In this document: positions 6,724 through 64,000 of the stretch, one piece after another
How the letters are laid out: each line of letters begins with the position of its first letter
Numbering within the stretch: position 1 is the first letter of the stretch
IMG/VR virus record: IMGVR_UViG_3300042868_003052
Coordinates: 10,492 to 74,491 of that record
Length of the DNA stretch: 64,000 nt
DNA from: a virus
Taxonomy: Duplodnaviria; Heunggongvirae; Uroviricota; Caudoviricetes
Direction: 5' to 3' (one strand)
The notes under the pieces: generated by a model
Database searches by the model: none
Seen by the model: the letters and a program-made list of their open reading frames with translations, nothing else
Told to the model about the DNA's origin: nothing
Translations under genes and position numbers: made by a program

Positions 6724-7027
6724 AGGTTATTACTTCGTCGGAGACGCTGTAAAGGATAAGGCCAAAGAAAAGCATGAGTATCCAGACTTGTCTAGAACAC
6801 TAGTATCTGATAAGTTGTTTAAATTCTCTGCTAGGAGATTTAAACTTGCTGATCTGCATGTCTTGCCATTACAGCGTCTTTATGGTTCTTTTGTTAATTC
6901 TAAAGAGGTTCAAGGTGTTATTGACACAACAGGGTCGCTTATCCCGTTCTTCATTGATAGACAAAAAGTAAAAAAGCTACAAGAGCTGATACTGACTTCG
7001 AGAGATTCAACTGACGTACACTTGTAG
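6695..7027 (+). CDS. hypothetical early protein
   Basis: 110-aa soluble ORF, followed by terminator. Confidence 0.35.
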   Translation: MAIPKTVLIEGYYFVGDAVKDKAKEKHEYPDLSRTLVSDKLFKFSARRFKLADLHVLPLQRLYGSFVNSKEVQGVIDTTGSLIPFFIDRQKVKKLQELILTSRDSTDVHL

Positions 7028-7092
7028 TGTCGTGGCCACGGGCATTCCTTAACGGGAGTGTTCGTGGCCGAATTTGTTTTTATTTTTTGTTT
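7028..7092 (+). terminator. intrinsic terminator-like hairpin plus T-tract before RNAP gene
   Basis: Palindromic cgtggccacg .. cgtggccg followed by aatttgtttttattttttgttt. Confidence 0.45.
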
Positions 7093-7297
7093 GAGGTTAT
7101 ATGACAAAAACAGATTCAAAAATCCTACACTACGTTTTGTTGGTTGCTATACTCTTTTTCTTTTCAAAACTTTCTTTAGATGCAGTACTATTAGGGGCAC
7201 TTGCTATTAAACTTTACCAAGATCGTTTTCATGGTTAAGTTTTTAGTCGGCCTTTATTTGATCACACTTGTTCCAAAAATCATGAGACTAATCGACT

Positions 7298-9538: not shown

Positions 9539-10032
9539 AAACTTATAAAAACTTTAGAGAGCTATATACTGGCTGGCAAGCTGGTGGTGTACCTCTTTGT
9601 GTGCTACAAGAAATGGCCATAGCACAACTAGGGTTGATTGATATTGTAGTGCCGCAAGGTATTGCACCATCTGTATCTCAGATTGAAGCCATTTTAAAAG
9701 ACTCTACAGAACCTCAAGAGTTCATGTATGAGCTAGGGGGTGATGTACACATCTGTGAGAACGAAGAAGACCTCAAGCAAATTGAAGGTGTTGACTTCGA
9801 GTGGGCTAAACAGCACAATGATAAGTGGCCTAATGCTACAGATCAAGGTATGTCTTGGGACTGCTGTGACTATGTCCTAAGTTCACGAAGCACAGGATGG
9901 GTAATCTTCTTATTGTGTACCAACAATGCTGGTGGACATACCTACTATGTTCCAGAGGCTCTGTGGCCTGCAGCAAGAGTGCTAGAGCACACCCGAAGCT
10001 CTGACACACCGTGGGGACACGCCAGTGCATGA
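9526..10032 (+). CDS. hypothetical protein
   Basis: 168-aa ORF. Alternative start ATG at 9535 overlaps the RNAP stop. Confidence 0.35.
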   Translation: MFRMKTYKNFRELYTGWQAGGVPLCVLQEMAIAQLGLIDIVVPQGIAPSVSQIEAILKDSTEPQEFMYELGGDVHICENEEDLKQIEGVDFEWAKQHNDKWPNATDQGMSWDCCDYVLSSRSTGWVIFLLCTNNAGGHTYYVPEALWPAARVLEHTRSSDTPWGHASA

Positions 10033-10083
10033 TACTCGAAAACTTTAGTAGACATACTAAGTTATTCACGTTATTGCTTATTC

Positions 10084-10104
10084 AAGCCCGTTAATTTAAC
10101 CCTC
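10084..10104 (+). promoter_or_regulatory. phage-specific promoter-like element, copy 2 (AAGCCCGTTAATTTAACCCTCA)
   Basis: Conserved element upstream of the SSB gene. TTAACCCTCA is identical to 10 nt of the T3 promoter. Confidence 0.55.
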
Positions 10105-10146
10105 AAAATGAGGGCGTCATCTCTTTTTAAATCAAGGAAAATTCAA

Positions 10147-10710
10147 ATGGCTATCATCAAAGACTGTGAACTGTGGTTCGTTAAAGCTGACCCAAAGCGT
10201 CCAAGCAACAAGTTCAATAAAGAAAACCCAACTTGGGAAACTCAAATCCGTACGACTTCTAAAGAAGTTAAGAAGTACTGGGAATCTCTCGGTTTGGCAG
10301 CTAAGGCTGTTGTACCTGACGAAGGTGCTCCATACTTCCGTGTCAACCTTCGCAAGAAGTCCATCAAGAACGATGGCGAACGCGCATCACCTGTCAAGGT
10401 TGTGAACGGTCACTTGGAAGATATCGATCCTAATACGATCGGTAACGGCTCTATTGGTCATGTTCGCATCTTCCAATACGAGTATGAGAAAGCAACTGGT
10501 GGCAAGGGTATTGCCAACGTGCTCATGGGTATCCAAGTTACAAAGCATATTGTCTACACTGCAAAAGCACGAGATGACGATTTCGGTATGACCGACAGCG
10601 AGACTATCAATCCTGAAGACGATGGTGATGATGCTCTAGCTGCTGTTTCTACACCGGCTGTTAAGACGCCAGTTGTCGACGTTAACAAGCGTCCTGACTC
10701 TGACTTCTAA
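10147..10710 (+). CDS. single-stranded DNA-binding protein, T7 gp2.5-like
   Basis: Start at internal ATG with RBS caaggaaa. Acidic C-terminal tail ending DSDF, as in gp2.5 (terminal Phe). OB-fold-like body. Confidence 0.6.
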   Translation: MAIIKDCELWFVKADPKRPSNKFNKENPTWETQIRTTSKEVKKYWESLGLAAKAVVPDEGAPYFRVNLRKKSIKNDGERASPVKVVNGHLEDIDPNTIGNGSIGHVRIFQYEYEKATGGKGIANVLMGIQVTKHIVYTAKARDDDFGMTDSETINPEDDGDDALAAVSTPAVKTPVVDVNKRPDSDF

Positions 10711-10769: not shown

Positions 10770-11450
10770 ATGCGATTTTCTTACACAATATTCAAAGATG
10801 ACGGTACAACCGATCAACCTGTTCGTGTTAATTTGACAACACGACATGAAGAGATTTCAGCTGATGCTTACACGCATCCGTTCTACGTGGAGATTTCTGA
10901 CAACCTCTACACAGGCCGCCCTCCAACAATTATTAAGTCTGCCGATGATTGGGAAGGCTGGATTGTTGGTCGTGAGCGTGCAGAGGCTTGGAAGCCTTTT
11001 GAGGAGGCTGGTATTACGATTAAGTCTGATTACCGTCGCCCTCTTACGCAACCTATTGGCACGGTAGAGCTTAAGCCTGTTGATGGTAACTTGAAGACTC
11101 TTGCAGCACTTGGTAAACCAGGTATCTCTGCAGTACCGCCTATCGCATTCTTTGCAATGGGCGCTGCTATGCAAGATGGTGTCAATAAATACGAAAAGTA
11201 CAACTGGCGTGAAGCTGGTGCTACCGTTTCTGTGTTTGTAGACGCAATGGGTCGACATTTGCTTGCTTACTACGCTGGTGAAGACCATGCCTCAGATAGT
11301 AAACTGCACCATCTGGCGCACTTGATGGCTGGTTGTGCTATCTTGCTTGATGCAGAGCTACATGGTAAGCTGAATGATGATCGATTGGCTGGCAACATTG
11401 ACCCAGAGGTTATCAAACAATTCATGAAATTGATTAAGAAAGAGTCTTGA
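10770..11450 (+). CDS. protein with dATP/dGTP diphosphohydrolase N-terminal-like domain
   Basis: KYEKYNWREAG..VDAMGRHLLAYYAGEDHASDSKLHHLAHLMAGCAILL resembles the phage dGTP_diPhyd_N family, recalled from memory. Confidence 0.35.
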   Translation: MRFSYTIFKDDGTTDQPVRVNLTTRHEEISADAYTHPFYVEISDNLYTGRPPTIIKSADDWEGWIVGRERAEAWKPFEEAGITIKSDYRRPLTQPIGTVELKPVDGNLKTLAALGKPGISAVPPIAFFAMGAAMQDGVNKYEKYNWREAGATVSVFVDAMGRHLLAYYAGEDHASDSKLHHLAHLMAGCAILLDAELHGKLNDDRLAGNIDPEVIKQFMKLIKKES

Positions 11451-14827: not shown

Positions 14828-15313
14828 ATGAAATTTACAGGAATAATTCCTGCAGCACCGTCTATTGTCAAGTCCACAAAATTTGATAATGGTCACTGGT
14901 TGTTTCCAGAGCAGCTCGGTAATGGAGTAGGTTTCATCTACGTCATCCGTGATCTTGAACTTAAACGTTGTTACTTAGGTAAGAAGCAGTTTGTTGGTGC
15001 TGGAAAGCTTAACAAAGGTAAAGAGTCTAATTGGAAGAAATACACATCTTCCTCTAAGGTTCTTGCAGAACTTCTTAAGCAACGACCGAAAGAAGAGTTT
15101 GAGTTCATTGCTCTTGAGCAGTATCAAACTAAAGGTACCTTGTCTTATTCGGAGACTTGGTCTTTGTGCTTGGTAGAGGCACCTACCAGTAAGCTATGGT
15201 ATAACACGTTGATTGAGAAAGTCACGTGGAATGTCAGAGAACCAATTTCAGATCGACATAAAGAGCGACTTAATAAAGTCATCAATTGGGAGTCTTTTAA
15301 CGAGACTCTCTAA
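14828..15313 (+). CDS. putative GIY-YIG homing endonuclease
   Basis: GFIYVIRDLELKRCYLGKK resembles the GIY..YIG motif. Free-standing ORF inserted in the replication module. Confidence 0.45.
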   Translation: MKFTGIIPAAPSIVKSTKFDNGHWLFPEQLGNGVGFIYVIRDLELKRCYLGKKQFVGAGKLNKGKESNWKKYTSSSKVLAELLKQRPKEEFEFIALEQYQTKGTLSYSETWSLCLVEAPTSKLWYNTLIEKVTWNVREPISDRHKERLNKVINWESFNETL

Positions 15314-18921: not shown

Positions 18922-19901
18922 CAAAAAACGTATTTGGCACAAGAGACACCTTTAAACCTTTCCACTACCCTTGGGCATATGATCTGTGGCTGTCACATGA
19001 GCAAATGCACTGGATTAGCCGAGAGGTGCCGTTGCATGAAGATGTGCGTGACTGGAACAACAAACTGACTGAGTCAGACCGTAACTTCCTGTCCAACGTG
19101 TTCTTGCTGTTCACACAGGGTGATATTGATGTGGCTAACGGTTACATCAAAGACTATCTCCCACACTTTGCACATCCTGAGATTCGCATGATGCTGCTTG
19201 GCTTTGCTGCACGTGAAGCTACACACATCGATGCCTATTCGTATCTGACAGAGACACTTGGTAAGCCTGACAGCTTCTATGGTGAATTCTTGAAGATTCC
19301 AATTATGAAAGAGAAGCATGACTTCTTCAACAAGGTGGTGAACACTGGCAAGAAGAAAGAATCGCTTCCGCTTCAGATTGCAGGTATCAGTGCATTCACT
19401 GAGGGTATGTTTTTGTTCTCATCTTTTGTGATGCTGCTGAACTATCCTCGAAATGGCATGATGAAAGGCATGGGTCAGATCGTTACTTGGTCTATTCTCG
19501 ATGAGCAAAAGCACGTAGAGGGTCTCACACATCTTTTCCGTACTGTCATCAACGAGAATAAAGCTTGGTGGACTGACGAGACAAAGGCTGAGATTTACTC
19601 TACAGCTGACATGATGACTGAGCTGGAGCTTGACTTTATTGACTATGCCTTCGCAGGTCAAGATGAGATTCATAAGCTTCGTAAAGAAGACTTGAAGCAA
19701 TACATCAAATATATTGTGGATCGTCGTCTGATTGCTCTCGGTATGAAGGGTATTCATAAGGCTAAAGAGAATCCACTGCCTTGGGTAGATGAGATGATTG
19801 CTAGCCAGAACCATGAGAACTTCTTCGAAAGTCGTGCAACTAGCTACGCTAAGGGTGCTCTGACAGGTACCTGGAGCAGCGTCTGGGGTAAATACAAGTG
19901 A
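18918..19901 (+). CDS. nrdB: ribonucleotide reductase small subunit (class I, NrdB-like, di-iron/tyrosyl radical)
   Basis: Ferritin-like iron-ligand pattern (EATH ... ExxH region). Position and length fit NrdB. Confidence 0.75.
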   Translation: MTKNVFGTRDTFKPFHYPWAYDLWLSHEQMHWISREVPLHEDVRDWNNKLTESDRNFLSNVFLLFTQGDIDVANGYIKDYLPHFAHPEIRMMLLGFAAREATHIDAYSYLTETLGKPDSFYGEFLKIPIMKEKHDFFNKVVNTGKKKESLPLQIAGISAFTEGMFLFSSFVMLLNYPRNGMMKGMGQIVTWSILDEQKHVEGLTHLFRTVINENKAWWTDETKAEIYSTADMMTELELDFIDYAFAGQDEIHKLRKEDLKQYIKYIVDRRLIALGMKGIHKAKENPLPWVDEMIASQNHENFFESRATSYAKGALTGTWSSVWGKYK

Positions 19902-20344
19902 TGTGTAATACGATGAAAAGGTGGGATACATATTTCCTTAACGTTGCAAGGTTGACGGCCAGCTTATCGTATTGCAAGAAGCTTCAGGTAGGTGCTGTCG
20001 CTGTGATGAACAGACGTATCATCTGTACTGGTTACAACGGTACGCTACCTGGCTCTGACAATTGCTGCGAAGACATAATCATTGTTGATGGTGTTGAAAC
20101 ACTCAAGACAAGGGATACTGTTGAGCATGCTGAACGTAACCTCATAAGCTTTGCTGCCAGATCAGGTATTGCTTTGGAAAGAGCAACGCTGTATATTACT
20201 CATAGTCCTTGTATGCAATGCGCAAAGGCTATTGCAAACGCTGGGTTCGTACGAGTGGTGTATGCTGAGCCTTTCAAGGCTGATAATGGCATTGAACTTT
20301 TGAAAAGCTTAAGGATTGAAACATGTCAGTTAGAGATTTCCTAG
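19898..20344 (+). CDS. dCMP deaminase
   Basis: Zinc-binding motifs HAERN and PCMQCAK of cytidine/deoxycytidylate deaminases. Confidence 0.7.
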   Translation: MMCNTMKRWDTYFLNVARLTASLSYCKKLQVGAVAVMNRRIICTGYNGTLPGSDNCCEDIIIVDGVETLKTRDTVEHAERNLISFAARSGIALERATLYITHSPCMQCAKAIANAGFVRVVYAEPFKADNGIELLKSLRIETCQLEIS

Positions 20345-25135: not shown

Positions 25136-25155
25136 CAACCCGTTAAATTAACCCT
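25136..25155 (+). promoter_or_regulatory. phage-specific promoter-like element, copy 3 (AACCCGTTAAATTAACCCT)
   Basis: Conserved element. Followed 45 nt later by an early-promoter-like motif. Both precede gene 25266. Confidence 0.55.
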
Positions 25156-25186
25156 GATTCTTCATTGATAGAGGCACGCAAATCGC

Positions 25187-25216
25187 TTGCGGAAAAAGCG
25201 GTATCTTATATGATAA
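25187..25216 (+). promoter_or_regulatory. early-promoter-like motif copy 3 (TTGCGG..GTATCTTATATGATAA)
   Basis: See 5008 and 5724. Confidence 0.4.
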
Positions 25217-37898: not shown

Positions 37899-37918
37899 AA
37901 GCCCGTTAACTTAACCCT
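37899..37918 (+). promoter_or_regulatory. phage-specific promoter-like element, copy 5 (AAGCCCGTTAACTTAACCCT)
   Basis: Perfect consensus copy upstream of the terS/terL operon. Confidence 0.55.
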
Positions 37919-48217: not shown

Positions 48218-49798
48218 ATGGCTGTAAACGCTGCCCAATCTTCTGTTAAAACTGTAGCAGATCCGAATGGTGCGTATGACTCGATGAAGCCGCTTTGGAA
48301 CAAGAGCAGAGCAGTCTGTAGCGGGGAGCGTTTCGTTAAAGAATTTGATGGTGTCATTGATATCGTCCAGTTCCGTAACTTGCTCATCCCGTTCTCACCA
48401 TCGATGACGCAACCTCAATACAACTTCTATAAAGCTGAAGCTGAACTGCCTGGCATTACTGCCCAGTTTAGCAAGATGCTTGTAGGTGGTTTGCTACGTA
48501 AGCAACCTGTGTTGAGCTTGCCAGATACTGTGCCAAAAGAGGCTAGTGACTGGATTATGAATACCTTTGGTAAGGATGATTCACCACTAGCTGCCTTTCT
48601 TGACCAAGCTCTTTGGGAGGAAGTTCAAACATCACGGGCCTGGGTCTTCATTGACTACCCTGAGATTAAGAACCCTAACAGCTTGACTAAAGAAGATCTT
48701 GCTAAGTACAAACCCTACCCTGTGTTGCATAATGCAGAGTCTATCATCAACTGGCGTGTTCGTCAAGATGCATATGGTAAGACTGTACTTGACCGAGTGA
48801 TTATTCGTGGTATGGTAGAAGAATTCAAAGAAAACGAATTCCATGCTACCTACACTGACACTTGCTGGGTGCATGAATTGGATGAGGCTGGCTATTATCA
48901 GATACGTGTGTTTAAACGTGAAGATAAGACCACTAATATTCCAGTCATCGCAGGTCAACAACAGACAAAACACGGTACTGAAAAGTTTGTGTTCAAGGAA
49001 GTTGAAGTCATTACCAACATACTCGCCAATGATCAGCGTTTAACTGAAATTCCTGCTTGGCCTTTGAATGGCTCTATTGAACTTGTTGAACCAATGCTCT
49101 CACCTATTATTGATAAGGAAGTAGCACTGTATAACAAGATCAGTCGTCGAAATCACTTGCTGTATGGTGCTTCTACCTATACACCTGTAATTATCTCTGA
49201 CATGGGTGACGATGATTTTGATGAGATTGTGGCGGGTGGTCTTGGTACTTGGATTCGTCTACGTCAAGGTGATGATGCCAAGGTTCTTGAAACACCTACA
49301 GCTGCACTTCAAGATATGGATAGAGCTATTGCTGCTTCTGTTGAAGAGATGGCCAAGCTCGGCATCCGTATGCTGTCGCCTGAGGCTGCTCAGTCTGGTG
49401 TAGCTTTGGAAATCAGGAATGCTGCTCAGACAGCTCAACTTGGAACATTGAACAGTAAGATTAGTAACGTGATGAGTCAAATCATTGTGTTCATGATCAA
49501 CTGGCGCTATGATCTTGAGTTGAAAGTGTCTGATATTGATTTCTCACTGTCTGCTGACTTCAACCCAACACCTCTTGGTGCTGATTGGTTGCGTCTTGCT
49601 ACAGAGTGGTATCAAGCAGGCCTAATCCCACGTACTGTGTGGTTGCAAGTGCTTAAGCAAAACGACATTATCCCTCCTGACTATGACGATGAAACAGGTA
49701 AGCAAGAAATTAATAGCGATGAGCTTCTGAACAAACCAGCTGATACCGGTAACGGCGATTATGCTGGAAAGATGAAAGAGTTGCTAGATCGCAGCTGA
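48218..49798 (+). CDS. portal protein
   Basis: 526 aa. Position upstream of MuF-like, scaffold and capsid genes. Typical portal size and charged C-terminal tail. Confidence 0.55.
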   Translation: MAVNAAQSSVKTVADPNGAYDSMKPLWNKSRAVCSGERFVKEFDGVIDIVQFRNLLIPFSPSMTQPQYNFYKAEAELPGITAQFSKMLVGGLLRKQPVLSLPDTVPKEASDWIMNTFGKDDSPLAAFLDQALWEEVQTSRAWVFIDYPEIKNPNSLTKEDLAKYKPYPVLHNAESIINWRVRQDAYGKTVLDRVIIRGMVEEFKENEFHATYTDTCWVHELDEAGYYQIRVFKREDKTTNIPVIAGQQQTKHGTEKFVFKEVEVITNILANDQRLTEIPAWPLNGSIELVEPMLSPIIDKEVALYNKISRRNHLLYGASTYTPVIISDMGDDDFDEIVAGGLGTWIRLRQGDDAKVLETPTAALQDMDRAIAASVEEMAKLGIRMLSPEAAQSGVALEIRNAAQTAQLGTLNSKISNVMSQIIVFMINWRYDLELKVSDIDFSLSADFNPTPLGADWLRLATEWYQAGLIPRTVWLQVLKQNDIIPPDYDDETGKQEINSDELLNKPADTGNGDYAGKMKELLDRS

Positions 49799-49816: not shown

Positions 49817-50326
49817 ATGTTTAATTTAACGATTTACTCCAATTTAATTTCGGTGCTTGAGTACAATCCAGATACCGGAATCTTCAATTGGCTGATAAGC
49901 CCTAAAAGAGGCATTCCTGCTGGCTCTGTAGCTGGCTTCTTGAATAATGGTTATATCCAGATTTCGTATAAGCGAAAACATTACAACGCTCACACACTCG
50001 CGTGGCTTTACTGTAATAAAAACTTACCATCTGGTATTTTAGATCACATTGACTGTAACAAGTCTAACAACCGAATCAGTAATTTACGAATTGTTGATCA
50101 CACTTTGAATCGCATAAATACGTTAACTCGCCACGATAATACTTCTGGATACAAGGGTGTGTCTTACGACAAGAAGTCGAAAAAATGGCGTGCTCAAATC
50201 AACCATGACAAGCAGCGTATTTATCTAGGTGTATACGAGTCACCAGAAGAAGCTTTTGAAGCCTACTGCGAAATAGGTAAAGAGCTCTATGGTGAACATT
50301 TCAACAATGGTGAAAAGAATGATTAA
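49817..50326 (+). CDS. HNH_3 + AP2-domain homing endonuclease
   Basis: LDHIDCNKSNNRISNLR (HNH_3) and GYKGVSYDKKSKKWRAQI..RIYLGVYESPEEAFEAY (AP2 domain). Confidence 0.7.
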   Translation: MFNLTIYSNLISVLEYNPDTGIFNWLISPKRGIPAGSVAGFLNNGYIQISYKRKHYNAHTLAWLYCNKNLPSGILDHIDCNKSNNRISNLRIVDHTLNRINTLTRHDNTSGYKGVSYDKKSKKWRAQINHDKQRIYLGVYESPEEAFEAYCEIGKELYGEHFNNGEKND

Positions 50327-53300
50327 TTCAAATACACAGATTTTTGATAAGGCACTAGATCGCGCAGCCATGGTGCGTTTGTACGAAAGACGCGTCAACG
50401 GTAAAGTGGAACTTGTCATTGACGGTCATACCGTTAGGGTCGATAAGTTAATTCGAGAAGCCAATCTGTCTCAGAAAGGCTTTGAGAAACTCCGTGATGC
50501 GATTGATCTAGAGCTTCAATCAACATACAAAGAGGTGTTCAACACTTCAAAGAGATCTTTGCTAGATCTTGTCAACGATCAAATAAGTTTTACTTATCAG
50601 AACATTGAGTCTGCTATAGGTAAGATTTGGAAACCAAGCACACCGCAAAGGCGTGTTTCAGATGAGATTGTACTAGAGCGTCCACTTGCTGGTGATAAGA
50701 CTCTAGCTGCAGGTTGGGCTGGTGTCAGCGCCAACGAGAAAACTAGACTTGAGAGTGTGATTCGAAAAGGAATTGCAGAAGGTTCTACAGTAGAGCAAAT
50801 TGCCTTAGAGGTGCGTCGTGGTAATGTACATACGATAACACGCTCACAAAGCAAAGCATTGGTCGTTACTGCAATTACTAGTGTAACAGCACAAGCTGAT
50901 CACGAAGTCTACCGCGCCAACGAGAAGGCAATTCAGGGGTGGCAGTATGTGGCCGTCTTGGATGCCAGAACCACGCCCTTGTGCTCGCACCGAGACGGGC
51001 ATATCTACCCCATAAGGGACACGGCGCACTTGCCTCCGGCCCACTTTAACTGTCGCTCTACAACAGTTCCCGTGTTTAAATCCTGGGAGGACATTGGTAA
51101 GCTAGAGGGTGTTGCTCAAGTTAGACGTAGAAACCTTCAAAACCTAAGTAAGAAGCAGATTGCCTTTTATGATGGTCAGACACCACTACGTGAGACTTAC
51201 AATGACTGGCTTGCTCGCCAGACAACAGATGTGCAGCTAAGACACCTTGGCGAATACTCTAAAGTTGAGTTGTTTAGATCAGGTCAACTGACTGTTGATA
51301 AGTTCACTAATCCTGACGGTAATTCGTTAGGTATTCGTGAGCTGAGAGCCATGACAGACTCTGGCTATGACTTGCCAAATGACACAAAGAAGTTTGCATC
51401 TGCAAAAGCTAAGCTTGATGCTATGCAACTTGGAGCAGCCTCACCTGATGATTTCTTGTCAGATGAGAAGCTTAAGAAAACTTTGGTAGATTACTACTTG
51501 CTTCAGTCAGGCGAACTTGACGGTACGCTCTCGATGACTAACTATCGAGGTACTCTGTTACATGCAAAGAAGGCTGCTAAGACTAGAGTATTGTCGTCTC
51601 CACCTAGAGAAGATCAACTCAAGTTTAACCCAGTCACTGGAAGATATGAAGACATCCGTCTGTATCAACCGAATATTGGTGTACATAGTAATAACCGTCG
51701 TTTGCTTGAACAATCTGAAGTATTGAAACAAGCTGACAAAGACTTTATCATGTCTATTGATGCATCTCTTGAAAACAAGATGAGCATTAACGAACGTGCT
51801 GTTGTACTTGATAACCTACGTATTGTGTTTACACGATATCGTAATAATCCAGAACCTTGGGTTAACTTTAAGGCTGTTGTTCAAGCACAGATTAAGTTTG
51901 ATGTGATGAACGTATCTGATGCCATTGAAACACAACTCCGAAAAGACAGTGACCCGCTGAAACGTCTACTGCAAGATAACTATATTGATCCAGTGCTCGG
52001 TCCTGTACAGCTTGATGATTTACACAATAACTTCATCAAGAACATTACGGCTAAGAACCGATGGGAAGATAGTACTGCACCGAAGATTGCAAAAGAATTG
52101 CGAGATACTTTTGATGCAGTGATTCTTGAGAAGAACCCGTTTATTTGGAAACGAATTGATGGTCGTGACATGCAGCAGTTTTATCTGCGCTTTGCACATC
52201 GTTTGAGCTTAGCTGACAGCCCTGATCGTGATCAATTTGCTGTGGCTCTGGGTCGTGACCTTTACAATCTTGCCAACTTCAACGGTGATCGTAGAAAGTG
52301 GTATGATTTAGGCATGGCAATCTTGGATGATACCAAGGTTAACAAGCTATTCAAGATTGAGACTTTTGGTGTACAAAAACGACGAATGAAGAGCCGCCTT
52401 AGTGGTTCTTACTTTGGCCCTTATTATGACACACTTGCTTACAACATCCGTGTTACAGACCCTCGAATTCAAGAGTACGCTCAACTGACTCGTAAGGTTG
52501 ACTTAGGTCTGCGAGTAGCTGTCTTGAATGATTCAAACAAACTTGTGTTTAGAGAAGGCTTCAAAACCTACTTCGTAGATCGTGGAATCCTCGGTTTAGA
52601 AGACACTCGTATACCAATCACATCGACATCAAGCTTTAGTGATTTCCCAGAAGAGTTTGTAGATAAAAACATGGTGGATGCGCTTAATTGGGCATCAGAG
52701 ACAAAATACAAAGTGGATGAGGACTATTTTGACTTCATCAAGAAGCTGCTGTATTTTGAGGATGATAAAGGTAAAGCACAATACTACAATGAGTTGAATG
52801 AGTATCGTAAATTCATCTCAGCTCGTGGTGATGCATATGAACGTTTCAAAGCAATGGAATGGTTACGTGCAAAACGTGCAGCATTCAGTAATCATCCTTT
52901 TATCGATCACCGTGCTCGTATCTATGACAGAGGCTTAATTAGTCCACAGTCTGGTGAGACATTCCGTCCATTCTTGAATACCGCTGTTGAGCGTGACTTC
53001 AGCAAAGATGGCTATGACAACTTGCAAGATCAAATTGGTGCTTTTCTTGGTGGTCACAGTGATAAGCTTGAAGGTGCCTTTAACTCATTGACAATCACAG
53101 GTCGTCAGAAGATTGCTAGAAAGTATCGTGATGAGATGGTCAAGCTTGGCTATCACATGCGTAGGGCTAAGCCTGGTGATGTTCGTGCTGTACTTGAGTC
53201 TGAACTGACTGGCATGATTGATGGTGAAGAGCAAGGTAAATTCTTTCGATTTGCCATTGAGATGTCAAAGATTGATGAGTTCTTGGAGGGTAACTACTCT

Positions 53301-53569
53301 GCAAGAAACCTCGAACGACTGTCAAACTACAAGATAGCACTAGCACTAGAACAGGATGCTTCGTCCTCTGGTGCACAGATTATTGCACTGACTACTCGAA
53401 ACAAAGAGCTTGCTGAGCTTAGTAATGTAGTACCTACTACACAAAAGCGAAGGCTTTATGACGAGATTGCAGCGTCAACATACAATGACCCTGAATTTCG
53501 AAAGCTCAACCTGAAGCTAGGTCTGAACGAAAAAGACTTGCGTAAAGCTGCTAAAGCGCAGAACATGGT
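50289..53569 (+). CDS. MuF-domain / T7-like RNA polymerase fusion (RNAP 2), exon 1
   Basis: N-terminal 270 aa carry the Phage_Mu_F motif (WQYVAVLDARTTPLCSHRDG..PPAHFNCRST). Downstream carries RNAP motif A DASSSGAQI (T7 DGSCSGIQH) and the first half of motif B RKAAKAQNMV. Confidence 0.75.
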
Positions 53570-54431
53570 AGAATGTTGCCATGTATAAACCTCGTGAATT
53601 CAGGGAAAATCCCAAAGGGACAATCCTGAGCCAAGCTTAGACAGTAATGTCTTTGAAGGTGCAACGACTAAGACAAACGGTCCATATCGGATTATGAAGT
53701 CTGTAGAAATCATGCCGATTTCGAAGCGCGGGGACGTACTATTCCTTAGGGATGCAGACGTAAAAGATAGTCTAATCTATACAGTAATGTATAGCAGGAG
53801 TTAGCGTGAATTACGAAAAGCACTATATAGCTTTAATTGAAAAATACGGCACTACTAGTAGACCGTTTAAGGGTTATCATGAACGTCACCATGTCCTTCC
53901 TAAATGCATGGGTGGTAAAGATGTTTACGATAACCTGGTGTACTTAACGGCGAGATGTCACTTATTGGCTCATTGGCTGTTGATGAAAGCTTTTCCAGAA
54001 GTAAAAGGTTTAAAAATTGCTTATGCAACAATGTGTACGCGTGATGGTATAAAGCTGTCGCCCGTGATGTATCAAATTGCAAAAGATGCAGTTAGCGGCG
54101 ATAACTCTATGCTTGCGAGGGCTGTTGTGACACCTTTAGGTTCATTTCCTACAGTGGCTGCAGCGGCGATAGCGCACGGTGTATCAAAAGCCACTATTTC
54201 AAAGAAGGCAGGGAGCACTAGTGTACTTCATAAAGGCTATCACTGGGTAGACCATATAGTAAAGGGTGATGTAGCGGATGGTCGAAACGCGCATCACTTG
54301 AGGAAAGGTGTTAGAACACCTTTTGGAAATTTCGAATCGACACGTGAAGCTGGTAGAGTGCTTGGCATTAATCACTCTACAATCACAAAGCGCATAAAGC
54401 GTGGTGATGACGGCTACTCCTATATGAAATG
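53570..54431 (+). mobile_element. group I intron (about 862 nt) containing an HNH homing-endonuclease ORF
   Basis: Exon 1 ends in U (53569), intron ends in G (54431). P1: exon ACAUGGU (53563-69) pairs with intron GCCAUGU (53578-84) including a U.G pair at the splice site. P10: intron GAAUGU (53571-76) pairs with exon 2 ACAUUC (54433-38). Splicing restores RKAAKAQNMV-TFYG, equivalent to T7 motif B RSVTKRSVMTLAYG. Confidence 0.7.
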
Positions 54432-54432
54432 A
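53806..54432 (+). CDS. HNH homing endonuclease with C-terminal NUMOD-like DNA-binding repeats (intron-encoded)
   Basis: GTG start with SD aggag. HNH motif YHERHHVLPKCMGGKDVYDNLVYLTARCHLLAHW. HTH-like repeats GVSKATISKK / LGINHSTITKRI. Confidence 0.75.
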   Translation: MNYEKHYIALIEKYGTTSRPFKGYHERHHVLPKCMGGKDVYDNLVYLTARCHLLAHWLLMKAFPEVKGLKIAYATMCTRDGIKLSPVMYQIAKDAVSGDNSMLARAVVTPLGSFPTVAAAAIAHGVSKATISKKAGSTSVLHKGYHWVDHIVKGDVADGRNAHHLRKGVRTPFGNFESTREAGRVLGINHSTITKRIKRGDDGYSYMK

Positions 54433-55815
54433 ACATTCTACGGTGCTGGTGAACGAACTGGCATCATGAACGTAGAAGGTAAGCTGGCTAAAGCTCTTGG
54501 AAAAGATGGTAACACACTTGTTGTCAAAGCTGCAGATCGAGATGTCGTACTGAATGAAATCAGTGCAAGGGCAGCTAGGTATGAAAGGTTTGACCCAGAG
54601 ACAGCCGCTGAACTGAAGCAGTTACGTCAGGATGTTCGTGATGTGTTTAACAAAGGTATTGACCCTGGTGATGACATACTTGAACAGCTTTACTTTCTTG
54701 AACCTAAGACAAAAGAGTTGGTTGAGAAACTATCTCATTCTTATGATCGAGTTGTGACACCTGATGACTTCAAGCAGATTGCTCAGATTATGAGTGAGAA
54801 GCTTAGAGAGCAAGTACCTATCCTTAAAGACTTCACAAAGTTCTTTGGTCGCCTTGCAGAAGATTATCTTGCTTCGGCAAAACCTTCTAACAGCATGTTT
54901 GATTGGAAGACAATTGCAAAGTTAACACTACGTGGTAGCAAGAAGAAAGGCTACCGACTTCCAGACTATGTGAGTGAGATGCTCGGTCTGAAAGCTGGAG
55001 AGCCTGTCTCTGAAAAGCTACTGAAGCGGTTATCATTTTGGAAACCTGACAGTACACTAGCAGACTTGTTGTTTGGTGTTAAATCACCTGATAACAGACG
55101 TACTGGTGCAAAATTCTTGAAATTTGATATTGCACAAGTTAAGGATGTTTATGAGCTAGAGATTTTCTACGCTAATAAATTACCTAAGAGCTGGACGAAT
55201 GTACCTTGGGTTAACTTTGATGGTAAGACCATTGAGCAAAACTTTACACAAGCTTTTGAAGAGCGTTTAGTGTATAAGAATGCTGATGGTGAGTGGACTA
55301 CCAACATTTTGCAAGTACCTCAGAAGACTGAGGCTACGTGGTGGGAACAAGTGATTAATAAATCTGGGAAGATTAATGACATCGCTGATGCATCGAAGGC
55401 TAGGACAGCTTTTGCTGTTAACGGTAACCATTCAAATGATGCTGTTATTGTTAAGAAGTTTCACTTGTGGGGTAGAGCCTCTGGCACACCTACATCTACC
55501 ATTCATGATGCGTTCTTTGCCAATGCTGCTGACATGCTTAAAGCTAGAGATGCCCTCCGTGGTATCTATGCTGAGACTCTGAGTAAGAACGTCATTTTGA
55601 TGACACTTGAAGAGATGAAAGCACGAGGCTTGCCTAAAGAGCTTTACGACAAATATTTAAATGAGGCTATTGAAACAGGTCTAATACCTATCCCTGGGCG
55701 CTCTAGGGTGGGTGGTAAACTTCTAAAGGATTCAGATATTCTGACACCGTCTGATATTCTTAAGAAAGTACCAAAAGGTTTTAATGAAGATTACGGTTGG
55801 TACGGCGTTGGCTAA
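54432..55815 (+). CDS. T7-like RNA polymerase (RNAP 2), exon 2
   Basis: In-frame continuation TFYGAGERTG.. has no start codon of its own. Contains NGNHSNDAV (T7 FVHSQDGS) and motif C IHDAFFANAADMLKARDALRGIYAE (T7 IHDSFGTIPADAANLFKAVRETMVDTY). Confidence 0.75.
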
Positions 55816-55847: not shown

Positions 55848-55867
55848 AAGCCCGTTAACTTAACCCA
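55848..55867 (+). promoter_or_regulatory. phage-specific promoter-like element, copy 6 (AAGCCCGTTAACTTAACCCa)
   Basis: Upstream of the scaffold and capsid genes. Confidence 0.55.
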
Positions 55868-55973
55868 GGTGTGAAATCGATTTAGATTATATCTTGTCGG
55901 TTGATTTAATTTAATTCTAGCAAGTAGACAGATAGTATCTCCTACTTCTGAGTTGTACTCAAAAGGAATGAAA

Positions 55974-56657
55974 ATGGCTGATAACCAAAACCAAAACGAA
56001 AACACTGACCCTAACAACGCCAATGGTGGTGAGGGTGGTGAAGACAAGAACAAGCAACAGCAGAACAGCAATGTCCCTGACATCGAGAAGCTGGTTCAAG
56101 AGAAACTGGATGAGTCCTTGAAGGACATCAAAGGTAAACTTGACAAGGCTTATGGTGCTCGTGACGAGGCTCTCAAGAAGGTTGCTGAGTTCGAACAGGC
56201 TAAGCGCGAAGCTGAATTGAAGCGACTGCAAGACGAAGGCAAACACAAAGAAGCCTATGAAATGCAGCTTGCTGAAGAACGTGCAAAACGTGAAGCACTT
56301 GAGAAACGCAATGTCGAACTGACTCGCGATATCAGTGTGCGCAACGCTCTTGCATCTCACCCTTTCCGTAATGATAACGCCTCTGAGATGGCTTATCGTG
56401 AAATCGTGGGTAACCTTGTCCAAAATGAAAAGGGCGAGTGGGTTCACAAAACTGGAGTCTCTGTAAAGGACTTCATCAAAGCTTTCGCTGAGAATGATGA
56501 GAACGCATTCTTGTTTAAACCAAAGATGTCTTCTGGCTCTGGTTCTCAAGGTACTCAAAAGAACTCTGACAATTCAGCTGGCAAGTCTATCTTCCAACTG
56601 TCTCAAGATGAAGTTCTCAAACGCGCTCGTGAAGGTACGCTTCGCGGCACAAAATGA
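55974..56657 (+). CDS. scaffolding protein
   Basis: Highly charged coiled-coil (KREAELKRLQDEGKHKEAYEMQLAEERAKREALEKR). Immediately upstream of the capsid gene. Confidence 0.55.
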   Translation: MADNQNQNENTDPNNANGGEGGEDKNKQQQNSNVPDIEKLVQEKLDESLKDIKGKLDKAYGARDEALKKVAEFEQAKREAELKRLQDEGKHKEAYEMQLAEERAKREALEKRNVELTRDISVRNALASHPFRNDNASEMAYREIVGNLVQNEKGEWVHKTGVSVKDFIKAFAENDENAFLFKPKMSSGSGSQGTQKNSDNSAGKSIFQLSQDEVLKRAREGTLRGTK

Positions 56658-56671: not shown

Positions 56672-57859
56672 ATGACTGCACGTTCTAACGTTGCTGGTGC
56701 TGACCAGTATGTCTTGCAAGAAGCCATTAGTGCTTACTCTGACGAGGCTTACACCAACGCCAAGAAACTGACTGGTACCGGTATTGTGGGTTCTAACCCT
56801 AATATCGATACTGGCACTGAGACTTTTATTGGCCAAGTTCGTTGGATGAAACCTCTGAACCCTACGGTCAACGTAGCCTCTCTCACTGACGCGACTGATG
56901 GTCAAAAGACTAATTTCGCTTCTGAATTCCTCAACTATGTCAAGACCGTTCGTACGCATGGCGCTGAAAAAGTCAACATGCAACAAGTGGTCACTCAACA
57001 AGACGGTCTGGCTAAGATTGGTCGTGACTTCGCTGAAACTCGTTCGCAAGACGAACACAATGCGCTGTTGGCTGTCCTCAAGGGTGTTGCCATTTCTGAA
57101 GCTCTGTATGGTGCAGCTGCAGCTTCTGGTTCTGCAGGTCTTGGTGGCCAAACCTTCGACAACGATCCTACTAGCAAGCGTTATGGCTTCTATGTGGATC
57201 TTGGTGCAAGCAAGCCTGTTACCGCTGCTACCACCGCAGTGCAGGGTGCAGCCCGTGCTGAAAGCTTCTTGAATGCCTTCGGTATGGCTTACAAGGACTA
57301 TGAGCCTGAGTACGCTTACCTTGTGACTTCTCCTGAAGTTATGGCTTCTTTGCGTTCTGCCAACTTGGTTGATGAGACCAAGGTTACTGATGGTATGGTT
57401 GAATTTAGCACCATCTTTAACGGCAAGTTCCGTCTGATTCAGACTCGCGCTGCTCAAGGCTTGACTACTGCTGAACTGGCTAAGATCAACACTGGTGGCG
57501 GTGTGGATATTGTCGGTAACAAGACTTCGTTCATTGTGCTCCCTGGTGCTTTAGCAATGCAGCAACTGGCTGTCCCTGATACTGTGGAAATTACCCGTAA
57601 CGGTAATGCCTACAAGGGTGGCGGTTCTACCTCTGTGTGGTACCGTTGGGGCTATGTGTTGGCTCCTGCTGGCTATGATTGGAAAGGCACTCAAGACGCA
57701 TTCCCGTCTGATGCTGACTACATGAAGGTTGTGGCTGCTAACGGCACTACCAGCGCACTGTCGGCTTCTGCTGATGGCCTGTCTGGTTTCCAAGGTACTT
57801 GGGGTCGTAAGTTCAGCTCTGCTTTGAGCTTGGGCATCTTGCCTGTGTTCCACTCTTAA
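56672..57859 (+). CDS. major capsid protein
   Basis: 395 aa after the scaffold gene. Strong RBS aaggaaattaaATG. Ala/Gly/Thr-rich composition typical of an HK97-fold MCP. The internal minus-strand 284-aa ORF is rejected. Confidence 0.6.
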   Translation: MTARSNVAGADQYVLQEAISAYSDEAYTNAKKLTGTGIVGSNPNIDTGTETFIGQVRWMKPLNPTVNVASLTDATDGQKTNFASEFLNYVKTVRTHGAEKVNMQQVVTQQDGLAKIGRDFAETRSQDEHNALLAVLKGVAISEALYGAAAASGSAGLGGQTFDNDPTSKRYGFYVDLGASKPVTAATTAVQGAARAESFLNAFGMAYKDYEPEYAYLVTSPEVMASLRSANLVDETKVTDGMVEFSTIFNGKFRLIQTRAAQGLTTAELAKINTGGGVDIVGNKTSFIVLPGALAMQQLAVPDTVEITRNGNAYKGGGSTSVWYRWGYVLAPAGYDWKGTQDAFPSDADYMKVVAANGTTSALSASADGLSGFQGTWGRKFSSALSLGILPVFHS

Positions 57860-61053: not shown

Positions 61054-61113
61054 ACATACCCACTGGTAGATATAAATCTGCTGGTGGGTTTTATTTTGAT
61101 AAATGGAGCTCTT

Positions 61114-64000
61114 ATGTCTGGTGTACAGATAGATGTCGACGTAAGGTCTTCTAAAGCAGATAGAGACCTTGAAGGGATTAATCAGTCCCTTCGTAATATT
61201 GAAAAGACTACAAATACTACTTCTGCAGCCTTGACTAATATGTTTAAGGGTTTGGCTTTGACTGCAGCCTCTGCTGTGTCGCTGAACTCAATCAGAAACA
61301 TCTCAAGTGAATTTACAGAACTTTCCAACAAGATTGCAACAGTTACAGGCCGTACTAAAGAACTTGCAGGCGCACAAGATCGCTTGTTTAAGATTGCAGA
61401 AGAGACACGTGGTTCTCTGCAAAGTACCGTAACTACATTCTCTAGCTTCGGTCGTGCATTGAAGCAGACTGGTGCCTCTACTGAGCGTATCCTCAATGCT
61501 ACCAAAGCTGTGCAAGAGGCCATGGCATTGTCCGGCTCTAGTGCTGAGTCAGCTAATGCAGCTATCACCCAATTGGGTCAAGGTTTGTCGTCAGGTGTCC
61601 TCCGTGGTGAAGAACTTAATTCCGTATTAGAACAAGGCTCACGTCTCGGTAAGGCTATTGCTGATGAGATGGGTGTCACTACAGGTCAATTGCGTTTAAT
61701 GGCAGCTGACGGTAAGCTGACAAGTGGTGTAGTGTTTAACGCTATTCTGCGTCAGTCTCAAGCAATCAATAAAGAATTCAAAGATCTTGCGCCTACATTG
61801 TCGCAAGGTACAAGTCAGCTTAACGATGCTGTTAAGATCTACGTAAACGAACTTGATAAAGGGTTGGGTGTATCTGCTGCACTCGGCTTGTCAACGTTTA
61901 GTATGTCTAAGAGTATCAGACAAGCTGCTGAGAATGCTTTTGATCTTGGTGCACAAATCAATTTAGTCTACAATCGAGTTAGTAAGAACGTAACATCGAT
62001 TGCTGCGCCTATTGGCAACATTGCTCTTGCACTTGGTAAACAGTTCGCTAAAGTGCTTCCACAAGGCTTCCTGAGTAGAACTCTGAGTGGTGATGTCAAT
62101 GATGCACTACGTACTTTTGATGATGCAACTGGCAATTGGGTACAGAAGTACAAACAATTCAAGCTTATTGACTTAGTGTCGTGGGATAGCGACATTGAGA
62201 TTGCAATCAAGAAACTTAAGCGTCTGAGCCCTACATATTGGGCTGGAGCTGGTTTCGATGTACCTACGCTTAAGCGTTTCTTTAGCACAAAGAACATCAT
62301 GGCTTATGGTCAGGCGTTCCAAGAGCTTGCTGTGGCTATTGCTGGTAACGGTAACAGTATCACAGATACTCTGGCTGAGTTCGCTTCAGATACTCGCGCT
62401 AGTACGTTAGCTAGCCTGCGCTATTTTGGTTTCCTGCAAGACACACTCATCAACATTCGTCCTGGCCAGTTCCAAACAATCTTCAAGAGTCTCTCTGAGA
62501 TTGTCCGGGGATTTTCTGGTGCATCGATCAAGATTTATGAGTTCGGCAAGATCATTCAAACTTTCACAGATGATTATGTCATTGTCTTTGGTGTAGCTGT
62601 TAAGGATGCTTTTGTTAAGTCACTTGGTTTCATTAGTGCATTTGCCAAGGGTGCAGTTAAAGCTGTATCTTGGGCTTTTGGTGCTATCATCAATCTCTTG
62701 GATGAACTGAAACCAGTAAGCTCTGCTATTGATGAGTTCTTAGCGGCAGACGAGTACGACATGATGGCCGATGCTGTTGTAAGTAGTCTTCGTAAGATGA
62801 CTAATGCAATTGAGGCTGTCCCTGCTAAGTTGAACAAGGCTTACCAATCGATTAAAGATTTCTCAAAGAAAGTCATTCACGAATTCTTTGTGATCTATGA
62901 TGATGTTATTGCTCACTCATGGTGGACTGATACGATTGAATCTGTTGTAGATACCTCTAACAACTTATGGAATCGTGTTAGTAGTGGTTTGCAGAAGTTT
63001 GCTTCTAACACAATCAATCTGTTCAAGAGAGTGTTTGACAAGAGCAACGGTCTTTCGTTAGATTGGTCTAGCATCAAGTCTGTAGATTTCTCGTTCACTA
63101 GTTTGAAACTCCCAAAGATTGATACAGGTAGTCTGGCTGAGTCCTTTGTAACAACACTAGATTCATTGAAGAAGAATGTAACTGCATTCTTTGACGCTTT
63201 TCCTTCAATTGCAAAAGCTACTCTGGTTGGTCTTGGTGGTGTTATTATCGCCTTGATGTTCCCTGCTGGTGCAATTAAGACAGCGTTGCTGACGGCTGTA
63301 CTTACTAGTCTTGTCACTAGTGGTACATTGATTGCTGAACAATTTGGCTCTGCCTTGACTGGTGGCAGCTTTGTCTCTGAGCTAGGCTACAATATTGGTA
63401 AGGCTGCTGGTTACTTTACAGCTACCATTATCCAAGAGCTTCCAAAGCTTGTTAATGCTATTACTGGTGTGGCTTCGGCATTCACACGAGGTTTCTTAGA
63501 AGAATTGCCGCTGATTGGTACAGCATTTAAAGCTATCTTCACAGCAGCTGATGGTGCTGGTGTGAGTGGGCCTCTTGGCTTGCTTGGCACAATTGTGTTT
63601 GGAGCAGGTATTGCAAGACTGCTGATGTCACTTGATATTGCTAAGAAACCTATTGAGGGTATCTTTGACATGTTCAAGAGTATCTCAACGGTTGTCTTTG
63701 GCGGTGCTGGCGGTAAGCGAGACGGTGTCCTGTCTACATACTTCTTTGGCACGCTTGGCCCCACTCGCGCCCTGAGTTTGATCGGGGTGGCTCTGCAGTA
63801 CTTCGGTGCTTTCGACTCCCTCTTCGCCCACTCTGAATTGCTTTCTTATGCAACTAGTGGCGGTCTAATGTATCTGGCACTCGCTGGAGACCAAGGCTTG
63901 AACAAGATCACTGATATCATTGGATCTAAGGTTGTAAAACCTGTGGCTGATGCTGTTAAATCTATGGGCAAGAATGTCATGTCTGGTAATAAGACACTGT
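61114..64000 (+). CDS. tail tape measure protein (5' part; ORF runs past window end)
   Basis: RBS ggag. Open frame of more than 960 codons to the window end. Ala/Gly/Ser-rich helical N-terminal TMP-like region, C-terminal Gly/Ala-rich hydrophobic repeats. Confidence 0.65.
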   Translation, partial: MSGVQIDVDVRSSKADRDLEGINQSLRNIEKTTNTTSAALTNMFKGLALTAASAVSLNSIRNISSEFTELSNKIATVTGRTKELAGAQDRLFKIAEETRGSLQSTVTTFSSFGRALKQTGASTERILNATKAVQEAMALSGSSAESANAAITQLGQGLSSGVLRGEELNSVLEQGSRLGKAIADEMGVTTGQLRLMAADGKLTSGVVFNAILRQSQAINKEFKDLAPTLSQGTSQLNDAVKIYVNELDKGLGVSAALGLSTFSMSKSIRQAAENAFDLGAQINLVYNRVSKNVTSIAAPIGNIALALGKQFAKVLPQGFLSRTLSGDVNDALRTFDDATGNWVQKYKQFKLIDLVSWDSDIEIAIKKLKRLSPTYWAGAGFDVPTLKRFFSTKNIMAYGQAFQELAVAIAGNGNSITDTLAEFASDTRASTLASLRYFGFLQDTLINIRPGQFQTIFKSLSEIVRGFSGASIKIYEFGKIIQTFTDDYVIVFGVAVKDAFVKSLGFISAFAKGAVKAVSWAFGAIINLLDELKPVSSAIDEFLAADEYDMMADAVVSSLRKMTNAIEAVPAKLNKAYQSIKDFSKKVIHEFFVIYDDVIAHSWWTDTIESVVDTSNNLWNRVSSGLQKFASNTINLFKRVFDKSNGLSLDWSSIKSVDFSFTSLKLPKIDTGSLAESFVTTLDSLKKNVTAFFDAFPSIAKATLVGLGGVIIALMFPAGAIKTALLTAVLTSLVTSGTLIAEQFGSALTGGSFVSELGYNIGKAAGYFTATIIQELPKLVNAITGVASAFTRGFLEELPLIGTAFKAIFTAADGAGVSGPLGLLGTIVFGAGIARLLMSLDIAKKPIEGIFDMFKSISTVVFGGAGGKRDGVLSTYFFGTLGPTRALSLIGVALQYFGAFDSLFAHSELLSYATSGGLMYLALAGDQGLNKITDIIGSKVVKPVADAVKSMGKNVMSGNKTL

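Follow-up and report, generated by a model that had tools for sequence, protein, structure and literature searches.

A MuF head-morphogenesis module fused to a predicted T7-type RNA polymerase, a candidate virion-delivered enzyme of long-tailed aquatic phages

The stretch of DNA analysed here, hereafter the window, comprises 64,000 nucleotides (nt) of a tailed phage (IMG/VR record IMGVR_UViG_3300042868_003052, positions 10,492 to 74,491) and belongs to a metagenomic contig of 74,491 nt. Within it, a gene at 50289-55815 is predicted to encode, once an intron is removed, a single protein of about 1550 amino acids (aa) that joins an N-terminal MuF (SPP1 gp7-like) head-morphogenesis module to an apparently complete single-subunit RNA polymerase (RNAP). 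We consider it probable, at roughly 0.65, that this MuF-RNAP is delivered from the virion and transcribes early genes from phage promoters, a conventional 746-aa T7-like RNAP of the same phage then carrying on the programme.

The gene is split over two open reading frames (ORFs), of 1099 aa at 50289-53588 and of 449 aa at 54466-55815, both found in the ORF listing where a first-pass annotation made from the letters had placed them; all genes of the region lie on the + strand. Joining 50289-53569 to 54432-55815 yields a single open frame of 1554 aa, and the uninterrupted homologues P0004, P0028 and P0047 are letter-identical to it at the junction (...RKAAKAQNMV-TFYGAGERTG...). Residue numbers throughout refer to this 1554-aa product, counted from the start of the listed ORF. 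The true start codon is probably ATG 50319 (MINSNTQIFDK...), 30 nt inside the listed ORF, because the N-termini of homologues, which read M..N.NTQ.YDK, align there; the product would then have 1544 aa. The elements of the gene are as follows.

50289-53569, + strand: exon 1, coding for the MuF module and for the polymerase from its N-terminal region, through T/DxxGR and motif A, to the first half of motif B
50319-51353, + strand: MuF/SPP1-gp7 module, about aa 11-355, with its Pfam core (aa 154-259) at 50748-51065
52905-52925, + strand: T/DxxGR motif DHRARIY, aa 873-879, aligning with T7 RNAP D421-Y427 (DWRGRVY)
53349-53378, + strand: motif A, EQDASSSGAQ, aa 1021-1030, putative catalytic Asp D1023 equivalent to T7 D537
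53541-53569, + strand: first half of motif B, RKAAKAQNMV, K1089 equivalent to T7 K631
53570-54431, + strand: predicted group I intron, 862 nt, core at 53570-53794, endonuclease ORF in the 3' part, terminal G 54431
53806-54432, + strand: intron-encoded HNH + NUMOD1 homing endonuclease, 208 aa (Pfam HNH 1.9e-5, NUMOD1 9.6e-6)
54432-55815, + strand: exon 2, with the second half of motif B, a fingers insertion, a specificity-loop-like region, NGNHSND and motif C
from 54432, at the start of exon 2, + strand: second half of motif B, TFYGAG, Y1097 equivalent to T7 Y639 and G1098 to T7 G640
55420-55440, + strand: NGNHSND, aa 1424-1430, H1427 equivalent to T7 H784
55498-55518, + strand: motif C, TIHDAFF, D1453 equivalent to T7 D812

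The N-terminal module was recognised by Phage_Mu_F (PF04233) at aa 154-259 (E 1.8e-14; 54.8 bits, the cut-off being 29.6), by TIGR01641 of the SPP1 gp7 family (E 1.7e-18, 67 bits against 39.65) and by phrog_241 'head morphogenesis' (1e-66 over residues 1-345), all three being matched by residues 11-383. The three agree with the first-pass annotation, in which the 1099-aa ORF was held to open with a MuF domain. More than 1000 stand-alone head morphogenesis proteins of phage genomes align by tblastn only to about aa 5-360, and the C...H..CRS signature of the module is invariant. With profile thresholds passed and its gene adjoining the portal gene in the head module, the protein displays the features of the MuF/SPP1 gp7 family. 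An AlphaFold2 (AF2) model of aa 11-424 was obtained with a mean confidence (pLDDT) of 87.9, its disordered stretch at model residues 349-355 suggesting a linker after the module.

Downstream of this linker, profile, motif and fold evidence all point to a single-subunit RNAP, in agreement with what had been proposed for this region from the letters. Pfam RNA_pol matches the 449-aa ORF alone at E 3.2e-5, above its gathering score, and the spliced product at E 1.5e-10 (41 bits against a cut-off of 22), so that Phage_Mu_F and RNA_pol, both above cut-off, are the Pfam domains of the 1554-aa product, with no others; phrog_414 'RNA polymerase' matches homologue P0028 (1.1e-18). Each of the stretches on which the proposal had been built, DASSSG (aa 1023-1028), RKAAKAQNMV-TFYG (aa 1085-1098), NGNHSND and IHDAFFA (aa 1451-1457), is present. 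In a family alignment of 70 sequences, 31-78% identical to the window protein, D873, R875, R877 and Y879 of the T/DxxGR motif are invariant, as are D1023, K1089, Y1097, G1098, H1427 and D1453. Motif B residues were mapped onto T7 by spacing; the position equivalent to T7 R627 is not conserved, and its neighbour K1086 is at least 90% conserved. T7 Y639 and H784 govern the selection of ribonucleoside triphosphates, and both positions are kept here as the invariant Y1097 and H1427.

The distance from known polymerases is large at the level of single sequences: a phmmer search of the spliced protein against PDB sequences returned no polymerase match, only a spurious one at 0.028, and the family profile was needed. 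At 1.3e-7 that profile reaches T7 RNAP, the alignment falling into collinear blocks that take in DxRGRVY, motif A, the specificity-loop region, H784 and D812; N4 RNAPII scores 0.021 and N4 mini-vRNAP is not reached. The AF2 model of aa 384-1554 (pLDDT 83.7, predicted TM-score (pTM) 0.80) retrieves by Foldseek against the PDB a top 50 composed entirely of T7 or mitochondrial RNAPs, at E about 1e-18 and covering nearly the whole T7 chain. Fold-comparison figures follow the same order, with 17.3 for yeast mitochondrial RNAP, 16.0 for T7 RNAP and 14.7 for human mitochondrial RNAP, as against 11.3 for N4 RNAPII, 11.2 for N4 mini-vRNAP (9.3 for 9pnq) and 6.0-6.7 for family A DNA polymerases. The comparison with T7 RNAP and N4 mini-vRNAP, which the first-pass annotation had named as a check, gives a significant RNAP fold with a T7-type core (16.0 versus 11.2), so that the refuting outcome stated there, no RNAP fold after the MuF domain, did not occur. 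As modelled, the right-hand fold is nearer RNA polymerases than family A DNA polymerases, and the region would be a complete single-subunit RNAP with its active-site residues intact, closer to the T7/mitochondrial type than to N4 vRNAP; promoter-specific, DNA-dependent RNA synthesis is predicted for it. The MuF module is separated from the palm by about 500 aa, and the fingers contain a helical insertion of about 170 aa. In sequence, the polymerase forms a deep, separate clade.

Comparison with the 746-aa RNAP of the same window was taken neither for nor against this assignment: in BLASTP the alignment is limited to motifs A and C (E 0.002 and 0.027), and hhalign of the family profile against the single 746-aa sequence gives a probability of 15.6%. 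NCBIfam contains no model matching either polymerase.

The two ORFs together carry one RNAP, as had been supposed, since the DNA between them matches a group I intron, the frame is restored on its removal and the junction is that of intron-less homologues. Rfam RF00028 matches 53560-53794 end to end with 66.3 bits (E 1.5e-15), its gathering score being 50. As read from the sequence, T53569, the second base of codon V1094, is the last nucleotide of exon 1, and P1 is formed by ACAUGGU paired with the internal guide GCCAUGU via a U.G pair; the 3' end of the intron, G54431, falls inside the stop codon of the HNH ORF, and exon 2 runs from 54432. We thus predict a self-splicing group I intron, the excision of which brings the two exons into one frame. 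An intein and a pair of separate genes were considered as well and rejected, because the Rfam match, splice sites that restore the frame and a junction identical to that of intron-less homologues fit an intron. EBPR siphovirus 1 carries a homologous intron and HNH gene at the same site (the latter, gp48, bears the annotation HNH endonuclease). Of 80 related IMG/VR loci, five carry an insertion of about 890-900 nt at the identical site, which is why the intron is regarded as a sporadic mobile element apparently targeting the motif B codons of the polymerase; at least 62 of the 80 are uninterrupted.

The genes that flank the fusion are listed below.

48218-49798, + strand: portal protein gene, presumed docking partner of the MuF module (Pfam DUF4055, 1.4e-10)
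49817-50326, + strand: free-standing HNH_3 + AP2 homing endonuclease, between the portal and MuF-RNAP genes (Pfam AP2 1.8e-11, HNH_3 4.3e-10)
55953-56657, + strand: scaffold gene
56672-57859, + strand: major capsid protein gene (phrog_206 9.3e-11 and phrog_247 5.9e-18 for the scaffold and capsid pair)

The fusion gene lies within the head-assembly module, because the scaffold and capsid genes are directly downstream of it and only the homing endonuclease ORF, whose stop codon overlaps the likely MuF-RNAP start, separates it from the portal gene. The order portal, MuF-RNAP, scaffold, capsid is common to the relative L003, EBPR siphovirus 1 and the roseophage DSS3_VP1. A further free-standing homing endonuclease, a SegE-type GIY-YIG gene, was observed at 14828-15313, between the 5'-3' exonuclease and primase-helicase genes. 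With the intron HNH gene and the two free-standing endonuclease genes, this genome is rich in selfish elements.

Relatives of the fusion are seen at the protein level only, a megablast of the region against 50,697 phage records giving no match. Searches of 5.8 billion proteins returned 402 clusters for the window query and 199 for the DSS3_VP1 query; among those listed, most are 1450-1600 aa long, nearly all carry precomputed PF00940 and PF04233, the contigs reach 90 kb, and the names given are 'SPP1 gp7 family head morphogenesis protein' or 'minor capsid protein'. When the single sequence was searched against 1.84 billion representatives, 163 proteins were returned, those listed looking like family members or fragments, and among these listed matches there is neither a full-length stand-alone version of the polymerase clade nor any protein resembling an ordinary stand-alone T7-like RNAP. 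Phage_Mu_F opens even the six full-length relatives that are most distant (24-29% identity), two of them showing a much clearer RNA_pol match (1e-25); in some relatives Pfam makes no RNA_pol call. An assembly or gene-calling artefact was ruled out, as the same uninterrupted ORF occurs in hundreds of independent contigs and in two cultured phages. These cultured members are the roseophages DSS3_VP1 and DSS3_PM1, classed in Naomviridae, whose uninterrupted 1463-aa protein is annotated 'head morphogenesis'; the gene is thus mis-annotated as a head protein in the published genomes of EBPR siphovirus 1 and DSS3_VP1/PM1. The family is not prophage-borne, since among 185,579 bacterial and archaeal species genomes it was found in one phage contig binned in one metagenome-assembled genome (MAG). 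Its occurrence, as judged from these sequence searches, suggests that the MuF-RNAP fusion is common in aquatic phages. As for variation in length, the homologue P0015 bears a ParB/Srx-like insertion of about 100 aa immediately ahead of motif A, P0095 has about 230 aa inserted a short way past motif B, and about a dozen listed homologues have 1620-1800 aa.

The second polymerase of the window, which the first-pass annotation had also reported, is real and readily recognised.

7298-9538, + strand: conventional T7-like RNAP, 746 aa (Pfam RNA_pol 6.5e-63; T7 RNAP in the PDB 3.7e-46; phrog_414 4.7e-114)

Both polymerase genes occur together on four long IMG/VR contigs and in DSS3_VP1, which shows the same layout with a separate 732-aa RNAP. 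The window also holds a T7-style replication module consisting of PolA, a 5'-3' exonuclease, a primase-helicase, ribonucleotide reductase (RNR) and ligase. A tape-measure-type open frame of more than 982 aa (61054-64000) runs off the window end, so the tail genes continue past it. The tape-measure gene, which shows a long tail, and the placing of the isolated relatives DSS3_VP1/PM1 in Naomviridae agree with the phage being of siphovirus type, as it had been described. In several relatives (L116, L118-L120, L123-L125, L127, L131, L133 and L134), the match to the conventional RNAP gene spans 2.75-3.3 kb instead of 2.24 kb, and it seems that in some of these genomes that gene is interrupted by introns or other insertions. 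Upstream of this gene in the window, by about 220 nt, a 17-bp G+C-rich hairpin with a T-run was noted at 7033-7080, followed by a non-coding stretch of about 230 nt; it could act in the control of polymerase expression, as a terminator or an attenuator.

Two classes of promoter-like motifs were found.

4022-4040, 10084-10102, 25136-25154, 37899-37917 and 55848-55866, + strand only: class 1 motif, AAGCCCGTTAACTTAACCC
5006-5037, 5721-5752 and 25185-25216 (positions 5022, 5737 and 25201), + strand: class 2 motif, consensus tGCGgaAAaannGGTATCTTATATGAa

The class 1 consensus is gAcCCCGTTAAATTAACCCt, with the short form CCCGTTAAnTTAACCC and the form CCGTTANNTTAACCC used to search relatives; the motif sequences of the two classes are also written tGCGGAAAAnnnGGTATCTTATATGAA and ACCCCGTTAAATTAACCCT. 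Five class 1 copies were counted, against 0.02 expected by chance. ORF 4122 and ORF 25266 are each preceded by one, and the others stand ahead of the replication module (10084), the terminase region (37899) and the scaffold and capsid genes (55848), the last copy lying just past the MuF-RNAP stop codon. In most of the loci of the 80 relatives, CCGTTANNTTAACCC is found just downstream of the MuF-RNAP gene, and it also occurs 0.3-1.3 kb past the end of the conventional RNAP gene; all 146 matches lie on the +, or coding, strand, the - strand having none. Class 1 is probably, to judge from this distribution, the promoter of one of the two phage RNAPs.

Class 2 has a different setting. In 29 relatives' loci its exact 13-mer precedes the conventional RNAP gene by 1-2 kb, and it recurs even where the RNAP protein is only 40-45% identical to that of the window; none was found in the relatives' structural loci and none on the - strand. 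Conservation ends sharply after ...ATGA(A/T)A, as expected near a transcription start, and in the window copy 25201 sits 65 nt past a class 1 copy. Sharply conserved motifs of about 20-26 nt are typical of promoters of single-subunit RNAPs. Hairpins of the N4 kind were not identified in the linear candidate promoters of about 26 nt, on which no folding was run. Sigma-70-like promoters are not enriched in 3300-10200 (12 against 14.9 expected), which is weak evidence given that the sigma-70 type may not be that of the host. The conservation of both classes at syntenic positions in relatives lends support to the two-polymerase temporal programme put forward in the first-pass annotation. In DSS3_VP1 (L004), a direct-repeat search made irrespective of gene boundaries revealed a repeated motif, (A/G)ATAGGnnnCGTTAAAGnGGG, at 3796, 20326, 29498, 33596 and 48393; its core CGTTAAA recalls class 1 of the window, and it is a candidate promoter in this cultured relative.

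Considering these features jointly, the following course of infection can be proposed. The protein of about 1550 aa would be made only after the self-splicing group I intron has left the motif B codons, and its N-terminal 355 aa or so would dock on the portal during procapsid assembly, by analogy with gp7, thereby placing a few copies inside each head. Packaging and injection are suggested by the MuF module and the position of the gene. On infection, MuF-RNAP would exit the capsid with the DNA via the long tail, and its C-terminal portion of about 1170 aa, as an active single-subunit T7/mitochondrial-type DNA-dependent RNAP, would transcribe early genes from phage-specific promoters, for which the class 2 motif is the candidate. 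Early genes would include that of the conventional 746-aa T7-like RNAP, which cannot transcribe its own gene at the start of infection, so that another polymerase is needed first. The 746-aa enzyme would then read class 1 promoters ahead of the replication and structural modules, the late MuF-RNAP gene included. With two phage polymerases acting in this way, host RNAP would therefore be needed little or not at all.

Several observations weigh against this scheme. The pairing of class 2 with MuF-RNAP and of class 1 with the 746-aa enzyme is drawn solely from gene order and could be the reverse. Class 2 contains a TATGAT/TATGAA element with a weak TTGCGG 16 nt upstream, which makes recognition by a host polymerase possible; its copy 5022 precedes a cell-wall hydrolase gene, with no obvious early function; and a strong terminator-like hairpin stands between copy 5737 and the conventional RNAP gene. 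On the side of delivery, no virion proteome of any family member was found in the searchable literature, and the model of the MuF module, the part presumed to dock on the portal, gives no significant Foldseek match in the PDB (best E 0.54). A folded polymerase of 170 kDa would, moreover, have to be unfolded or threaded through a siphovirus tail.

These points bring up the possibility that the polymerase acts only in the producing cell, as a late or middle-gene enzyme, the MuF module having an ordinary head role or the two halves being cleaved apart, with no delivery. The gene does belong to the late module, and its product is presumably a late one; class 1 motifs stand ahead of late genes, and cleavage could take place in the low-confidence segment between the MuF module and the rest (model residues 349-355). 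A polymerase made together with head proteins would, however, come too late for most of the programme, a role that the 746-aa enzyme fills, and the 746-aa RNAP gene would still need another transcriber first. The fusion is, in addition, kept down to 24% identity, with no full-length stand-alone copy among the listed matches from the 1.84 billion proteins, and such a conserved covalent link is therefore hard to square with halves working separately; nor was a prohead protease gene seen between the portal and capsid genes. Action confined to the producing cell thus appears rather unlikely.

Alternatively, MuF-RNAP might be packaged and injected with a different main task, either transcription-coupled genome entry, as in T7, or the making of RNA primers for DNA replication. 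T7 and mitochondrial RNAPs, the structural neighbours of this enzyme, prime replication at origins; the catalytic site is intact, and the MuF tether would place the enzyme at the DNA end nearest the portal. SPP1 gp7, furthermore, affects DNA delivery (PMC5576092). Against this stand the two sharply conserved promoter-like classes, which match two polymerases, and the primase-helicase that the phage itself encodes, while such roles would in any case be compatible with early transcription, so that as the principal function they are quite unlikely. Finally, that the polymerase-like region is a catalytically dead relic, now serving as an internal head or DNA-binding protein, is highly improbable: its remoteness from ordinary T7-like RNAPs, the empty single-sequence PDB search, the BLASTP and hhalign results with the 746-aa enzyme and the missing RNA_pol call in some relatives would fit such a relic, but the catalytic Asp pair, the Lys, Tyr and Gly of motif B, the His equivalent to H784 and DxRxRxY are invariant across the 70-sequence alignment, the predicted fold is complete and confident, and the homing intron targets motif B, such introns usually picking essential conserved sites.

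Delivery of MuF-RNAP from the virion, followed by early transcription, can be set against known systems. Functionally, the closest is N4, in which an injected vRNAP is followed by a T7-like RNAPII. N4 gp50, a protein of about 3500 aa, has its polymerase in the middle, flanked by an N-terminal part that contains a metallopeptidase and by an encapsidation region, and N4-like vRNAPs are confined to N4-like phages (PMC5512222). In contrast, the window protein has about 1550 aa and an N-terminal MuF/gp7 module instead, and its phage is long-tailed with a tape measure, whereas the tail of N4 is short. Membership of the N4 vRNAP (gp50) family was accordingly rejected on size, metallopeptidase fusion and closest fold. 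T7 and mitochondrial RNAPs (PF00940) are the best structural and profile matches, with T/DxxGR, motifs A, B and C, the Y639 and H784 equivalents and the specificity-loop region in common, at a sequence identity of only 12-17%. T7 RNAP is nonetheless a free 883-aa enzyme made early in the cell, while the window protein carries a head-protein module of 355 aa in front and is expressed from the head-assembly module. The multisubunit virion RNAPs of dU-DNA and jumbo phages (AR9/PBS1, phiKZ) and the virion RNAP of crAss-like phages are carried in the particle and make early transcription independent of the host; they are multisubunit or two-barrel enzymes, unrelated to the T7 fold, with no MuF fusion.

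With SPP1 gp7, Mu gpF and the MuF-effector fusions (MuF polymorphic toxins and polyvalent proteins), the window protein has in common that a Phage_Mu_F module forms its N-terminus and that the portal gene is a neighbour. In SPP1, gp7 binds the portal, is present in 1-2 copies per capsid and influences DNA delivery (PMC5576092), and MuF-enzyme fusions are thought to reach the host via delivery (PMC5512222). The MuF-effector fusions show the same architecture of MuF followed by an enzyme, MuF being the proposed packaging and delivery handle (PMC5576092, PMC5512222), but their cargos are toxins or host-modifying enzymes (ADP-ribosyltransferase, RelA/SpoT, RNases, PRTase), whereas here the cargo would be the phage's own transcription enzyme; a polymerase cargo is not mentioned in either of these papers. 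Such fusions, besides, occur mostly in temperate phages or prophages with immunity genes, unlike the MuF-RNAP family, which is essentially absent from bacterial genomes. A MuF polymorphic toxin was ruled out for the window protein, given its RNAP C-terminal part, the scaffold and capsid genes downstream and the single MAG-binned phage contig. The fusion of MuF with an RNAP is, as surmised in the first-pass annotation, apparently undescribed: no description was found in the searchable literature, with incomplete coverage of subscription journals, and the DSS3_VP1/Naomviridae papers mention neither RNA polymerase nor MuF.

To our knowledge, injected single-subunit RNAPs are known essentially from N4-like podoviruses. 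We lean towards the wider view that a large, unrecognised lineage of long-tailed aquatic phages, Naomviridae included, delivers a MuF-fused T7-type RNAP and works with two polymerases and two promoter classes, independently of host RNAP. If so, injected single-subunit RNAPs would have arisen a second time, independently of N4 and with a different packaging handle, and this would be the first MuF handle to carry a polymerase for the phage's own use instead of a toxin; it would also offer a concrete mechanism for the delivery of large cargo by MuF modules. Naomviridae were recently reported to be abundant in seawater (PMC12669031), and the DNA of AR9/PBS1 and DSS3_VP1/PM1 is substituted with deoxyuridine (dU) (PMC12697855), so that delivery would explain how transcription starts on DNA with dU in place of thymidine in this family. 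Hundreds of proteins called 'head morphogenesis' or 'minor capsid' would be corrected to polymerases, the two comparatively defined candidate polymerase-promoter pairs might serve as orthogonal transcription tools, and the cultured DSS3_VP1/PM1, which infect Ruegeria pomeroyi, make the prediction directly testable.

Some further observations concern other parts of the window. An ORF at 10770-11450, ending at the PolA start codon, has the N-terminal domain of a MazZ-like dATP/dGTP diphosphohydrolase (1.2e-23), and an ORF of the dCMP/cytidine-deaminase family follows the RNR genes at 19898-20344; no thymidylate synthase was seen among the window ORFs scanned, in a scan that was not exhaustive. 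The phage may remodel the nucleotide pool or carry a non-canonical base, which is considered here because of the dU-substituted DNA of its relatives DSS3_VP1/PM1. The start of the window (58-3800), where an NlpC/P60 protein is encoded, may on a permuted map be the opposite end of the structural module to which the tape-measure-type frame belongs.

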